Shown here one piece after another: positions 51,261-56,941 of a stretch of DNA of 64,000 nt. Source of the DNA: an uncultured delta proteobacterium (GTDB lineage Bacteria > Desulfobacterota > BSN033 > UBA1163). The DNA is taken from positions 192,001-256,000 of the forward strand of contig CAWHBU010000003.1 of the NCBI GenBank assembly GCA_963827685.1, in the 5' to 3' direction. The notes beneath the pieces are model-generated. The model saw nothing but the letters and a program-made list of their open reading frames with translations. It was not told where the DNA came from and searched no databases. The position numbers and the translations under genes were made by a program. Within the stretch, counting starts at the first letter, position 1. Each line of letters begins with the position of its first letter.

Positions 51261-51806
51261 CTACCAATTATGAAAGCGCTTGGACATAAATGTGCAGACT
51301 AAAAGACTGCACGAAAGATTTTCACCAAGAGTTATGTCGATTAGATCACAGTTCTCTTTTTTGCTCAAATTGAGATTTGTCTTCTCATTTATTCTGTCTA
51401 AATAAAACTCCCAACGGGGATCACCGACGGGAATAGGAAAAAGTACAAATGCAACTATACCATTTTGTGAGTTTAACTTCTTGGCGTCATCGATAACCGA
51501 CTGAATATTTTTTGTAATTGGGCGACAATTTGTATTTATGCCCTGAATTCTCCAGTTTGTATTTGGCGTTTTTAACTCTATACTGTAAGGTTCGCCATTG
51601 TGGAAAAATGTTATATCAGTCCTGTCGCGGCGATGGTGGACCTTAGATTCAACTTCCACGTTCTTCATTTCCCTTTGTTCTAAATAGTGTGCGAGTTCAA
51701 ATTTCAACCATCCCTCGAACTTGGCCTTTTGCCTCAAGGGTATGCGTAACAGCGCCGCATTATTTTTTATAATATCGACTATTCCAGTGCGAATGAGCTT
51801 GTCCAT
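51261..51806 (-). CDS. Cassette 7: putative PD-(D/E)XK-fold nuclease
   Basis: FEGWLKFEL...VE...TDI...IELK. Confidence 0.65.
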   Translation of the reverse strand: MDKLIRTGIVDIIKNNAALLRIPLRQKAKFEGWLKFELAHYLEQREMKNVEVESKVHHRRDRTDITFFHNGEPYSIELKTPNTNWRIQGINTNCRPITKNIQSVIDDAKKLNSQNGIVAFVLFPIPVGDPRWEFYLDRINEKTNLNLSKKENCDLIDITLGENLSCSLLVCTFMSKRFHNW

Positions 51807-51846
51807 GTAAGACCACGAATTATCATTTTCAGTTCATCAATATGCT

Positions 51847-51936
51847 TGCCAACGAATTGCATAACCTGCGCGGGCAATCAGTTATTCCCAAAACCTGACG
51901 CGACTAATCCGCGTCAGGTTCATGCAGTTGTTGGGC
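51847..51936 (-). other. attC site (cassette 6)
   Basis: R'' GCCCAAC ... R' GTTGGCA; TGCAT-AACCTG-CGCGG / CCGCGTCAGGTTCATGCA stem with extrahelical bases. Confidence 0.88.
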
Positions 51937-51937
51937 C

Positions 51938-52573
51938 TCAGCTAAACAATTTGGCTATTTCTGTTGATGCTGTGCTTAATACTACACCCAAAAGAAGCCA
52001 TACCAACCCCATGACGGAAATGCTCAGTCCGCCCGTCTGAGAGAGTTCTATCTTCCTCTTCGTCTCATCGTCCTCCTTTTCCCGCAAGACTCGCTCTTCA
52101 TGCAATTCTGATGTAATTTTTCGAGCTTCATCATCTAGCCGTTTGTCTACCTGAACTAATCTTTGATCCAGAGCCAAAAGATTTTCCTCCACTACTGCCA
52201 GCCTTTTCTCAATCGGTGCCTCCGGGCCAGCACCTTGCCAAAGGTGCGCACGTCCAGTTAACTGAATCGTTGGGAGACTAATGTTGCCCTCAAAGGATAC
52301 TGGCCTAGGCTTATATTTTGGAAACCGCTTAAGCCACTCCACTAAGTGTTCAAAGAAACCTGCACGTCCGAATAGCTTCCTTGTTTGTCTCAGACCCCAC
52401 ACCACTGTACTAATGCCACAAAGCTGCAGAACCAGGCCGGTGATTCTAATTTTCTGCTCAGTCACTCCTCCGAAAAGAGCCAAAGCCATAGACGCAACAA
52501 CCACAAATGTACACAGCCAAAACAGCCTGGGTTCTCTAATCCAACGCAAGACCGCTCTAACCCACCGAATCAA
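51938..52573 (-). CDS. Cassette 6: 3-TM protein with coiled-coil region
   Basis: Two N-terminal TMs, charged helical segment, C-terminal TM; TTG start. Confidence 0.7.
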   Translation of the reverse strand: MIRWVRAVLRWIREPRLFWLCTFVVVASMALALFGGVTEQKIRITGLVLQLCGISTVVWGLRQTRKLFGRAGFFEHLVEWLKRFPKYKPRPVSFEGNISLPTIQLTGRAHLWQGAGPEAPIEKRLAVVEENLLALDQRLVQVDKRLDDEARKITSELHEERVLREKEDDETKRKIELSQTGGLSISVMGLVWLLLGVVLSTASTEIAKLFS

Positions 52574-52599
52574 GCTCTTCTCCTATCAAAATTTTATAC

Positions 52600-52662
52600 G
52601 CCCAACGTGCGGCTCACCGAGAGCCGGGTTTATCGGCGATCCGGTGCAGCCGCTGGTTGGCA
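52600..52662 (-). other. attC site (cassette 5)
   Basis: R'' TGCCAAC ... R' GTTGGGC; GCGGCT-CACCG / CGGTGCAGCCGC stem. Confidence 0.88.
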
Positions 52663-52675
52663 TGTCATCAGTTCT

Positions 52676-52927
52676 TTACATGAGATCCAATTTATCGCCA
52701 ATGAATTGTTCAGCCATTTTAACCGACATCTCACGCGCGACTTTCTCAACATCATCAAGATTAATATTGGTGGTTTTTTTTAAGTCCAGCAGCTCCCACC
52801 TTGGGAAGTCCACAGTAACTTCAGATAATATCTGTCCATTACTCGATTCTCTAACTGTTACTTTGAATTGCTTACCTATGCCATCATCATGTTGTATCCA
52901 TTCGCTGGTAATCTTGACTTTAACCAT
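52676..52927 (-). CDS. Cassette 5: 83-aa hypothetical protein
   Basis: AAGGAG RBS then MVKVKITSEW... Confidence 0.7.
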   Translation of the reverse strand: MVKVKITSEWIQHDDGIGKQFKVTVRESSNGQILSEVTVDFPRWELLDLKKTTNINLDDVEKVAREMSVKMAEQFIGDKLDLM

Positions 52928-52957
52928 TCTTCTCTCCTTAAACTGAATCTTATTGAG

Positions 52958-54508: not shown

Positions 54509-55102
54509 ACGTTTTGCAGGCGGATCACAATACTCACTAAGACAGTCGCCAATCAAATCGGCAAGTGGTGTTTGTGCCATTACCCCAAATAGGTCTTCCC
54601 AGGTAATGATGCTTGAACCCTGCTTCGCCAGGACAGGCCAATCCTTCTTCTTTTCGTGACCATGCGACAGAAGATAGTATAGATTGCAGTCCCATGAACT
54701 ACTATGCAAATATTGATATAGGTGGTGATACAACGAAATATTTCTTACGACCGATTCGGATAATGTTTTCACCTCTATCAAAACCACTTTCTTATTCTTC
54801 TTGTCTATGTGCAGAATGTCAGGCTTAATATATGCAAATCGTTTGTCGAAATCCTGAATGCCAAAATTCTCACCCGTCAAACCGTTTTCGCACACAGTAT
54901 TAAGGTATGTAAAACCAGAGACCAAGAATTCGCCTTTAGCGGTGAGGTATCCATCATCATCTGATTCATACACTGGCAACCTGATTCCCGGCATGTTCGC
55001 CGAGATGTATATCAACGACATTTGAGCAACAGCAGCCCATCTTGACTCTGAATTCTTCATTAATCGGGATGGTTTCTCGAAAAGATATGTCGCGTTACTC
55101 AT
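54503..55102 (-). CDS. Cassette 3: putative PD-(D/E)XK nuclease
   Basis: SESRW...KPDILH...LIEVK...ITWEDL. Confidence 0.7.
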   Translation of the reverse strand: MSNATYLFEKPSRLMKNSESRWAAVAQMSLIYISANMPGIRLPVYESDDDGYLTAKGEFLVSGFTYLNTVCENGLTGENFGIQDFDKRFAYIKPDILHIDKKNKKVVLIEVKTLSESVVRNISLYHHLYQYLHSSSWDCNLYYLLSHGHEKKKDWPVLAKQGSSIITWEDLFGVMAQTPLADLIGDCLSEYCDPPAKRG

Positions 55103-55117
55103 GTGCGTCTCCGGTAT

Positions 55118-55183
55118 GGCTAACGTGATGGTCACCAGCGTGGCGCGCCGTTTTGCCACGTCCGATTCACCTACCCGTTAGGC
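55118..55183 (-). other. attC site (cassette 2)
   Basis: R'' GCCTAAC ... R' GTTAGCC; CGTGGC / GCCACG stem. Confidence 0.75.
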
Positions 55184-55186
55184 AAT

Positions 55187-56045
55187 TCACCAGGTCCAGC
55201 GTTGAGATGCCAAGAAAGCATCAATCCCGCCTGACCCCACGACAGCTATCGTGCGTGCGTATTCGACCTCTAGGAGATCCCCAAGAGCGGCCCTTGAGAA
55301 GGGCTCATCCTTTGGCACTTGCCGATCTATTGCATGCTGTAGGCCGGGTGAAACGTGGTATTGAAGCCATAACCACGGTTTTTCGACAACATCGGCAGAA
55401 CCGAGCGCCACGTGTCCGGTAGTGACGTCCGATGCAATGTCTATGTCCGTCGCCCATATTTTGGCGGTCGTGAATATCACAGGGATGAAACTTATGGGGA
55501 AGTTCTCGGCCATGTAGCGTTGGTTTTTCGAGAAACACTCGATAAGCCCATTTACGCCTCGAATGACTTGAGTCGCGGCTTCTTCGATCGTCCCGCGACC
55601 AGTGCCACTAGCGTCGCCCTTGGCAGCGCCCTTCACTTCGACTGCTACGTGGTAAATCATTTCAGACCCGTCGAGACGGCTGAGGGACGCGGTCAAAGCA
55701 TTCCCCTCTCTCCGTACAGATTCAACCAGAATGTCTTTCGGTACACCACCTCTACGCACGTAAGGTGGCTTGAGCGAACAACCAGTCGCTAAGCGATGGA
55801 TTTGCCCGCTTGCATTCGGCCACAAGGTATCGGAAAGACCCCTTGGCGACTTCGCTCCATTGACTCAGGACAAAGTCGATTCGCGTGTGGTAGCTCTGCA
55901 ACTCGACAGGGAACTCGGACGCCTCGAACACCCACGGTGAACGCCTCTCATCGTTCAGTTGGTGGGCGCGTCGAATCACTGCGTACTGGAACGGATGGCC
56001 CTGTCGGTTGAGGGCTGCTTCGAAAATCGTCTTCTGGTCGGTCAT
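55187..56045 (-). pseudogene. Cassette 2: putative PD-(D/E)XK nuclease, +1 frameshift near 55773
   Basis: GHPFQ...EFPV...RIDF...VAECKR...W then FIPVIFTTA in the next frame. Confidence 0.65.
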
Positions 56046-56057
56046 TTCTCCTCGCAT

Positions 56058-56082
56058 GCCTAACGAGCCTCTAGGAAAAGTC
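56058..56082 (-). other. attC remnant (R' only) abutting an orphan MITE terminal repeat
   Basis: GCCTAAC followed by GAGCCTCTAGGAAAAGTC (16/18 to the MITE IR). Confidence 0.75.
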
Positions 56083-56088
56083 TATAGA

Positions 56089-56941
56089 TCACTTTAATTT
56101 GAATATTGATTTCGTAAAATCATTTGGATTCAAACGGCTTTTTTCAAAATAGTCTTTTAGCTTTTGAAAGGCTTCTTTATCAGATTCCTGCCAAGACAAA
56201 CCCATTACTGTTGCCGACTTTACAAATGCTTCTTTTGCTTTATCGAAACAGACGCCCCCAAAAAAGTAAGGTTGATACCATTGCCTAGAAGATGTGTCTA
56301 GACTTTCATTTGTAATCCAAGTCTGGTATCCAAAAGACACTGGAATACCAGCAATTCTATATGCATAGTTTTGGTGTTCGAATGAAACCCATTCGTCAAG
56401 TATCTTAAATATTTTCTCTCTAAATATTTCATCTGATAGTTGCATCGTATCAAGTTTTATTATAGGTTTACCCAAGTGAATAACAGTTTCATGCTCTGTT
56501 TCCTCTGGTTGTTTCAATTCGGTATTAAGGCCATCTTCAGGAAGGAAGAGTAAATTGTTATTCACAAACCCTTTTGTTTCCCATTGAAGTATAAAAGTCA
56601 ACGTCCAAGAACAATACAATTTAAGAGATGCTTTCTCTCGGTTAACTCGAGGCAAAAAATAAAGGGATATTCAGGTTTTTTAACCAATTCAGTAAATGCT
56701 CCCCATTATAACGAAATGCTTCTTCACCCGATTTGACTTGTATGCCAAATACTTTTTTTACGTAACCAACAGAGCCTTTGACTTCCATCAATGAACAAAT
56801 CAAATCCACGCCATAGTCATTTTCTGTGGTTGCTCTTATACATGGGCCAAATTCAGAGAGAATATACTGGGCGAGGTATTCAGCACGGATTCCTTGCTTT
56901 CGATTAACAGCAACCTTTCCACCTGATTCTTTTCCTGCCAT
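56089..56941 (-). pseudogene. Cassette 1: DUF4365-like PD-(D/E)XK protein, +1 frameshift near 56650
   Basis: GIRAE...ENDYGVD...IQVKS; AGGAGG RBS. Confidence 0.7.

Follow-up and report, generated by a model that had tools for sequence, protein, structure and literature searches.

Does the array of gene cassettes carried by an uncultured delta proteobacterium encode a set of solitary nucleases directed against phages, or is it what was left of an integron after the loss of its integrase? The array was located in a 64-kb stretch of DNA (C3:192001-256000; hereafter the window) from an assembly of 5.2 Mb in 14 contigs (94.5% complete, 8% contamination). It consisted of nine integron-type cassettes, recognised by core sites and hairpins, at 49855-56991 on the minus strand, and every sizeable open reading frame (ORF) within these limits lay on that strand. 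Since no integrase was found within the window (there was neither a TIGR02249 nor a tyrosine-recombinase match), the array was classified as a cluster of attC sites that has no integron integrase (CALIN), as defined in 10.1101/2024.07.02.601686. With moderate confidence, we interpreted the locus as an integrase-less CALIN headed by a promoter, in which five PD-(D/E)XK cassettes would provide stand-alone nucleases against phages or other mobile DNA. The cassettes, whose limits ran from the TT of the previous core to the G of their own core, were as follows:

56990-56064, minus strand, cassette 1
56063-55124, minus strand, cassette 2
55123-54150, minus strand, cassette 3
54149-52964, minus strand, cassette 4
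52963-52606, minus strand, cassette 5
52605-51853, minus strand, cassette 6
51852-51143, minus strand, cassette 7
51142-50413, minus strand, cassette 8
50412-49861, minus strand, cassette 9

The candidate nuclease genes (lengths in amino acids, aa) were those of cassettes 1, 2, 3, 4 and 7:

56642-56947, minus strand, cassette 1 gene, N-terminal piece (101 aa, DUF4365, motif DYGVD..IQVKS)
56089-56655, minus strand, cassette 1 gene, C-terminal piece (188 aa, other frame, no known domain)
55752-56057, minus strand, cassette 2 gene, N-terminal piece (101 aa, EFPV..RIDF..VAECKR)
55187-55825, minus strand, cassette 2 gene, C-terminal piece (212-aa ORF, other frame)
54503-55102, minus strand, cassette 3 gene (199 aa from the ATG at 55102, motif PD95..E110-V-K112)
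53092-54096, minus strand, cassette 4 gene (334 aa, intact, motif EIDL..VECK)
51261-51806, minus strand, cassette 7 gene (181 aa, intact, motifs E31/E37..D64..E77-L-K79 and TDI..IELK)

The original prediction, which was made from the sequence alone, had described restriction-endonuclease-like motifs in five cassettes, and all five were found in the minus-strand ORFs where it had placed them. Such a motif was weak evidence by itself; the enrichment was real. Namely, a loose D..ExK pattern occurred in 5 of the 9 cassettes and in 5 of the 54 other genes of the window (Fisher one-sided p=0.003). The wider claim of a cargo rich in PD-(D/E)XK nucleases stood for two genes by Pfam and for two more by model, fold and invariant residues, and for the fifth (cassette 2) motif conservation was the one argument left. 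The suggestion that some of the genes belonged to undescribed families was a fair one: cassettes 2, 3 and 7 exceeded no threshold in Pfam, NCBIfam, PHROGs or PADLOC. None of the five nuclease proteins had a transmembrane-like (TM-like) segment.

The start codon of the cassette 3 gene was preceded by GGAG six bases upstream. We found 28 homologues of its product in 5.8 billion clusters, none of them with a Pfam domain, and no member of the family in 400 other genomes sampled across the phylum. Residues D95, E110 and K112 were invariant. In the predicted structure (predicted local distance difference test score, pLDDT, of 88) the core was composed of a helix (residues 19-36), three strands (41-47, 96-100 and 105-111), a second helix (119-134) and a last strand (138-145). 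In this model D95 opened the second strand, the third contained E110 and K112, and the long helix before them bore an invariant E19. The top fold match was AF1548 (1y88; Z 8.0, root-mean-square deviation, rmsd, 3.7, 116 residues aligned), with further matches to BstEII (9ibq, Z 7.8) and to the nuclease domain of LlaBIII (4xqk, Z 7.6). VC1899, Cdn1, Can2, Card1, N.BspD6I, Cfr10I, SgrAI and NucS were also matched, and nearly all of the top 50 were nucleases of the PD-(D/E)XK fold. Metagenome contigs of a run from another study tiled cassette 3 at ~99% identity.

The cassette 7 family comprised 770 clusters at E<=1e-3 and spanned Nitrospirota, Bacteroidota, Bacillota, Chloroflexota, Planctomycetota and others, with no Pfam domain among the 120 matches listed. 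E31, E37, E77 and K79 were invariant in this family and D64 was at least 90% conserved. The predicted structure (pLDDT 91) had the same topology as that of cassette 3: helix 31-44 (with E31 and E37), strands 48-55, 62-69 (D64) and 72-79 (E77, K79), helix 98-111 and strand 116-125. Its best fold match was the restriction enzyme R.SwaI (5tgq; Z 8.0, rmsd 4.5, 127 residues aligned), and the next were EcoRV (1eo3, 6.6) and BglI (6.1). Structure prediction, one of the checks proposed at the outset, returned a nuclease core in the models of both cassettes. Because fold, topology and invariant residues agreed together, we considered the assignment of the cassette 3 and 7 models to the PD-(D/E)XK nuclease fold to be solid.

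Cassettes 1 and 4 were, by sequence profile, solid members of PD-(D/E)XK families, both scoring above the Pfam cut-offs. Cassette 4 matched Mrr_cat (PF04471, E=8.7e-6, 26.3 bits against a cut-off of 21) over residues 194-288; in comparison with Mrr-type type IV enzymes, it thus had the catalytic domain, and its N-terminal ~190 aa matched no family at E<=0.1 in Pfam, NCBIfam or PHROGs. Cassette 1 matched DUF4365 (PF14280, E=2.5e-6, 28 bits against a cut-off of 24.3), and in the family alignment the columns of a glutamate, D42, a glycine, D46, Q68 and K70 were at least 90% conserved. Its 188-aa piece matched residues ~97-282 of proteins of ~288 aa (56% identity to P0269). Since the two pieces together aligned with P0269, an intact homologue, from end to end, the cassette 1 gene was evidently split by a frameshift. 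The frame broke at a run of six T near 56650, and reading through the break made the DUF4365 match hardly longer (profile positions 7-96 of 139). The metagenome contigs did not span this run, one contig of run X1 ending at 56647, so that the frameshift may be real or may be a homopolymer error.

For cassette 2, intact relatives of ~293 aa indicated that the 101-aa and 212-aa ORFs were two halves of one gene (alignment A3), the window having an additional base near 55767-55768 compared with those relatives. In run X2, from another sample, a contig of 96% identity was one base shorter at 55768 and kept the frame, and a contig of X1, the probable source sample, kept the shifted form seen in the window; the parts of the array left uncovered by runs X2, X3 and X5 carry no information on absence. 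Among the 45 rows of the family alignment, E52, D65, E85 and K87 were at least 90% conserved and C86 was invariant. The HSDR_N_2 domain was matched below its cut-off, with E=0.082 for cassette 2 and a best value of 0.0039 among the 6 of 45 family members that matched it, and its relatives (three matches in 41 genomes) were too few for a profile alignment. Judging from these conserved residues, cassette 2 was probably a nuclease of PD-(D/E)XK type. Because of the frameshifts in cassettes 1 and 2, activity would remain possible in this genome for cassettes 3, 4 and 7 alone. Searches of PDB chain sequences with profiles A1, A2 and A3, cassette 4 and P0269 gave nothing meaningful; a lone lysozyme match of profile A2 (E=0.02) was discarded as not meaningful.

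The nucleases appeared to be solitary. As the original prediction had stated, no methyltransferase accompanied them, and no METHYLTRANSFERASE was found: none of the 14 ORFs scanned in or beside the array had a methyltransferase Pfam domain at E<=0.1. To this we added the surroundings of two families. The cassette 7 family was surveyed at 42 genome loci, together with the two ORFs closest on either side (150 of 151 selected ORFs were scanned), and a DNA methyltransferase was present within two ORFs at one of them (L009). A restriction, abortive-infection (Abi), CRISPR or other defence-type Pfam neighbour was found at 15 of the 42. The domains concerned were AIPR, OLD-like TOPRIM ATPase, GmrSD, HSDR_N, AbiU2 and Cas1, as well as DUF4238, DUF6602, SLFN_AlbA_2, AAA_21 and HNH. 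At nine further loci the neighbours pointed less clearly to defence (SMC-like ATPases, T5orf172, M78 peptidase, DUF4145, DUF2971, an antitoxin), and at the remainder they were unknown or housekeeping genes. The cassette 2 family was surveyed at 80 metagenome loci with one neighbour on each side, which gave 102 distinct proteins. An adjacent methyltransferase was present at 3 of the 80 (L109, L149 and L150, two of them near-duplicates); 57 of the 102 neighbours had no Pfam family, and the others included TIR_2, NYN, RE_endonuc, YhcG PDDEXK, HNH and DUF5677. As a separate observation, a DUF6602 protein adjoined the cassette 7 family gene at three of the 42 loci (L016, L018 and L033); DUF6602 is a domain of the validated Vibrio cassette system 'Damona' (10.1101/2024.07.02.601686).

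Both families were also found in integron-like surroundings. Our relaxed hairpin test was unspecific over whole foreign loci (~1.0-1.7 sites per kb on both strands), and therefore only position-specific counts were used, each compared with the density of the locus itself. The cassette 7 family gene stood directly before an attC-like site at 5 of 42 loci (1.1 expected) and the cassette 2 family gene at 14 of 76 (3.4 expected), and 10 of those 14 loci had a further attC-like site just upstream. At one locus of the cassette 2 family (L145, Ga0268298_10036521), the gene was part of an array of very stable attC-like repeats of ~125 nt (-35 to -59 kcal/mol), which were ~530 nt apart.

It had been pointed out with the original prediction that integron cassettes can encode phage defence, and this is already in print (10.1101/2024.07.02.601686 and 10.1101/2024.07.02.601719). 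Five validated single-gene anti-phage systems of the V. cholerae superintegron are nuclease-domain fusions (10.1101/2024.07.02.601686). According to the same source, 'Divona' combines DUF4365 with an Mrr-type nuclease and a crr6 domain (PF08847), 'Epona' combines Mrr_cat with a holin-like domain of two TM segments, and both protect against phage. Compared by domain description, cassette 1 shares with Divona the N-terminal DUF4365 and the arrangement of one gene per cassette, but neither its read-through product nor P0269 matched crr6 and the gene is frameshifted; identity with Divona was rejected for lack of the crr6 domain. On the same basis, cassette 4 shares with Epona the Mrr_cat domain and the single gene per cassette but has no TM-like segment, for which reason identity with Epona was rejected as well. 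The bacteriophage-resistance integron cassettes (BRiCs) of mobile integrons confer phage resistance, are stackable, have costs and expression that depend on the distance to the promoter, and have close homologues outside integrons (10.1101/2024.07.02.601719). The array resembles them in carrying presumed defence genes as integron cassettes, whereas BRiCs belong to plasmid-borne class 1 and 2 integrons of clinical bacteria and were tested experimentally; the accessible part of that source named none of the families of cassettes 1, 2, 3, 4 and 7.

Comparison with other nuclease systems gave partial likenesses. DUF4365 is the DNA-degrading effector of the short-Argonaute SPARDA systems (PMC10810196). 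Cassette 1 shares this Pfam domain with them, but no APAZ domain or Argonaute gene was found here and the PADLOC Argonaute-associated model reached E=0.011. By language-model features, the named cluster nearest to the cassette 2 family was GAPS4 (PF26115, score 0.82, a lead only), a PD-(D/E)xK defence complex that forms a two-protein heterotetramer (PMC13748975; 10.1101/2025.09.07.674715), whereas cassette 2 holds one gene. R.SwaI and EcoRV (for cassette 7) and AF1548, BstEII and LlaBIII (for cassette 3) share with the predicted structures the core and an acidic/lysine motif of catalytic type; they differ in sequence (9-16% identity), and cassettes 3 and 7 are without a partner methyltransferase.

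Because single-gene nuclease cassettes of Vibrio protect against phage and relatives of cassettes 7 and 2 often stood beside defence-type genes, a defence role was plausible for the nuclease cassettes, by analogy with this precedent and from the neighbourhoods. In the mechanism that we propose, the five nuclease cassettes would have been acquired independently, each with one gene and no partner methyltransferase. The nucleases would cut invading DNA, or the cell's own DNA once an infection is sensed, and self-damage would be avoided by specificity for modified DNA or by inactivity until triggered. That nuclease cassettes protect against phage was already published for V. cholerae; what is new here is the three unmodelled families.

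The state of the array itself was judged from its attC sites. The calls were made by our own hairpin test and by folds, not by IntegronFinder; to pass the test, a site needed AAC/GTT cores with no fewer than 5 of 7 core pairs, no fewer than 12 arm pairs and an energy of -11 kcal/mol or lower (DNA parameters). Of the 9 junctions 6 passed, as did 2 of 400 182-nt stretches drawn at random from elsewhere in the window, and a stricter version that needed 6 of 7 core pairs retained 3 of the 9. Rfam gave no matches over 49000-58000 (it has no attC model). We recognised six clear attC sites and one weaker one, all on the minus strand, 358-1183 nt apart and starting at most ~40 nt past a stop codon:

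55183-55118, minus strand, attC of cassette 2 (GCCTAAC/GTTAGCC, 66 nt, -13.1 kcal/mol)
53084-52958, minus strand, attC of cassette 4 (AGCTAAC/GTTAGCG, 127 nt, -21.1 kcal/mol)
52662-52600, minus strand, attC of cassette 5 (TGCCAAC/GTTGGGC, z -3.5)
51936-51847, minus strand, attC of cassette 6 (GCCCAAC/GTTGGCA, z -3.35)
51224-51137, minus strand, probable attC of cassette 7 (TGCCAAC/GTTATAT, z -2.3)
50476-50407, minus strand, attC of cassette 8 (ATATAAC/GTTATCT, z -4.5)
49919-49855, minus strand, attC of cassette 9, the last of the array (AGATAAC/GTTCTAT)

In the DNA folds the cores were paired, with z from -1.7 to -4.5 at five sites and -0.5 at 55183-55118. Several cores deviated from the strict RYYYAAC / GTTRRRY consensus. 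The probable site of cassette 7 had a strong inner stem and two poorly pairing cores, and was missed by our test. The attC sites of cassettes 5 and 9 were 85% identical, and the former had eight further partial copies in the genome. Sites resembling the attC of cassette 6 were present in genomes of the same genus.

Two junctions were irregular and involved the same mobile element:

54151-54454, minus strand, miniature inverted-repeat transposable element (MITE) of ~305 nt, with 18-nt terminal inverted repeats, inside the attC of cassette 3 and bordered on each side by GTT
56058-56082, minus strand, junction of cassettes 1 and 2, a lone 91% copy of the terminal repeat of the element fused to the core GTTAGGC

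The first feature was called a MITE because its ends flank transposase-coding IS1182-family stretches elsewhere: a 1.5-kb stretch lay between such ends at at least five other places in the genome, and the long form (~1.8 kb) encoded a 464-aa DDE transposase (NF033551, E=1e-74). By its sequence, therefore, the MITE is a deletion derivative of an IS1182-family element. One more short copy existed. The element may prefer attC cores as targets. At the second junction the left half of an attC was missing and the fold showed no hairpin. Sediment metagenome contigs also contained the element, and its depth there was high.

Upstream of cassette 1 there was only a core, GTTAGGC at 56991-56985, together with two overlapping features:

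57053-57026, minus strand, sigma-70 consensus promoter-like site TTGACA-16-TATAAT (12 of 12 hexamer matches), reading into the array
56989-57053, minus strand, 65-nt promoter module ending at GTT (56991-56989)

Cassettes 1-4 had been described as promoter-proximal, which agreed with this consensus promoter just upstream of cassette 1, although it is not the classical promoter embedded in an integrase gene. The 65-nt module comprised the promoter and the next 35 nt. In eight copies from four genomes of the same genus the -35 and -10 hexamers were invariant and similarity stopped right after GTT, the crossover point of integrons. A pattern search for the module gave 8 hits, spread over 6 of 15 same-genus genomes, and the reversed control gave none. 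The module may represent a site of attI type that carries a promoter of its own. Two full-length integrase genes had no copy of it within 1.5 kb. The genome contained a second, partial copy at C3:805402-805471.

The array site was a variable hotspot between conserved flanking genes (47846-49162 and 57214-57837). These were 125-173 nt apart in two genomes of the same genus (G013 and G014), where the locus was empty, and enclosed other DNA in three more (~1.9 kb in G008, ~4.8 kb in G011 and ~7.5 kb in G002). By DNA comparison, none of the cassette genes of the window was found in 14 same-genus genomes. A 176-aa gene at 49317-49847 was situated elsewhere in relatives and may belong to the variable part. 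The differing base composition of the cassettes was confirmed, from 36.4% GC (cassette 1 and the AT-rich cassette 4) to 55.3% (cassette 2), with 46.3% for the whole window. Thus, the array resembles a typical CALIN in its single-gene cassettes on one strand, its attC-type hairpins with AAC/GTT cores, the absence of a nearby integrase, the variable content at a fixed locus and the differing GC of its cassettes. It differs in having a consensus promoter of its own at the head, within a module repeated in the genus, and in the splitting of one attC by the IS1182-derived MITE.

The remaining cassettes had the following contents:

52676-52996, minus strand, cassette 5 gene (106 aa, no family)
51938-52573, minus strand, cassette 6 gene (211 aa, two TM-like segments, no family)
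50332-51077, minus strand, cassette 8, encoding a zinc-ribbon/TM protein (50901-51077) and, from the ATG at 50895, a membrane protein with weak likeness to VanZ
49913-50377, minus strand, cassette 9 gene (154 aa, N-terminal TM-like segment, no family)

Cassettes 6, 8 and 9 thus encoded predicted membrane proteins. The VanZ-like ORF continued across the attC of cassette 8 and stopped ~70 nt inside cassette 9 (50332-50476).

A number of observations told against the reading of the array as a set of defence nucleases. The fold matches of cassettes 3 and 7 were middling (Z at most 8.0), and Foldseek, one of the proposed checks, found no PDB match for either model at E<=0.001. About half of the top 50 matches of cassette 7 were Rossmann-type methyltransferases (Z 5-6.5), which have a similar three-layer sandwich; the list mixed these with nucleases, and the fold ranking alone was therefore not decisive. 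The probable nuclease identity of cassette 2 came from its conserved motif, and when the family profiles (A1, A2, A3 and A4) were compared by hhalign, the probabilities stayed below 2%. PHROGs and NCBIfam had no match for the five nuclease genes. The proposed PADLOC check was negative as well: with PADLOC-DB v2 (the 2023 library) the best matches were short and partial, at E 0.011-0.05, and no system matched better than E=0.011. Among the loci of the cassette 7 family, 27 of 42 had no clear defence-type neighbour, and at several the gene stood among housekeeping genes; moreover, apart from DUF6602, the neighbour domains are ones that we take to be of defence type. Finally, two of the five nuclease genes (cassettes 1 and 2) were frameshifted, the attC of cassette 3 was split by the MITE, the attC at the junction of cassettes 1 and 2 was truncated, and the genome held only a remnant of IntI, the integron integrase. 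Thus, the array may be decaying.

This last group of observations would fit a relic array, in which the cassettes were left over after integrase loss, the nuclease genes are decaying and the enrichment mirrors the environmental cassette pool. We regarded this explanation as unlikely, though it had the most in its favour among the alternatives. The shifted form of cassette 2 was also present in the probable source run, and damage to the attC sites (the MITE and the truncated junction) was evident. The best TIGR02249 match of the genome was a C-terminal piece of 101 aa at C3:782919-783275, ~530 kb away (L001 1492-1797, minus strand), while a full-length IntI above the curated cut-off was found in 4 of 14 other same-genus genomes. 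Attention is also due to attC-like repeats that were observed at several further loci of the genome; given the IntI remnant, the partial module and these scattered repeats, the genome holds several integron relics. However, three nuclease genes and four other cassettes had intact frames, a perfect consensus promoter was still present at the head of the array, and the families keep their catalytic-type residues across hundreds of relatives. Additionally, as the assembly was 94.5% complete, an intact IntI could have been missed.

We considered it improbable that the genes are orphan type II restriction enzymes, or addiction toxins that stabilise the array in the manner of the toxin-antitoxin cassettes of large chromosomal integrons. 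Toxin-antitoxin cassettes are stated to stabilise integrons (10.1101/2024.07.02.601686). The best fold matches were indeed type II enzymes (SwaI, EcoRV and BglI for cassette 7; BstEII, Cfr10I and SgrAI for cassette 3), and the few relatives noted above adjoined methyltransferases. Nevertheless, such neighbours were rare (1 of 42 and 3 of 80 loci), the five cassettes contained no antitoxin-like second ORF, and a sequence-specific type II enzyme would kill the cell if nothing protected it, yet members of these families occur widely as single genes. A complete type II restriction-modification system was rejected for the array, with no methyltransferase in the 14 ORFs and few beside the relatives. 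The last alternative, that the fold serves repair or recombination, mere DNA binding or mobile elements, had little to recommend it: repair and recombination enzymes (NucS, Hjc, RecU, SfsA, MGME1) were among the fold matches, part of the cassette 7 family stood among housekeeping genes and cassette 2 was assigned by its motif, but the patchy spread across phyla (0 of 400 phylum genomes for the cassette 3 family, 0 of 14 same-genus genomes for the cassette genes by DNA) fits a housekeeping role poorly, the invariant acidic and lysine residues argue for catalysis, and the cassette 7 family was nearly absent from viral contigs (one marginal partial match in 2.9 million).

Compact genes for phage defence were shown in integron cassettes recently, mainly in Vibrio and on clinical plasmids. 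The array described here comes from an uncultured anaerobe of freshwater sediment and adds three nuclease families for which Pfam, NCBIfam, PADLOC and PHROGs offer no model. Each of the three is a small candidate consisting of a single gene, and one of them, that of cassette 7, is very widespread. Building on the interpretation of the array as a promoter-headed CALIN with stand-alone defence nucleases, we tentatively suggest that at least one unmodelled family, with cassette 7 as the best candidate, might be a new single-gene anti-phage nuclease, compact and similar to type IV or abortive-infection enzymes, and that the 65-nt promoter-crossover module, at the head of integrase-less arrays at several loci of the genus, might keep such arrays expressed, their cassettes being serviced in trans by integrases encoded elsewhere. 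A partly decayed arsenal of this kind, with its frameshifts, its MITE and the loss of its integrase, bears on the functional lifetime of unused cassettes.

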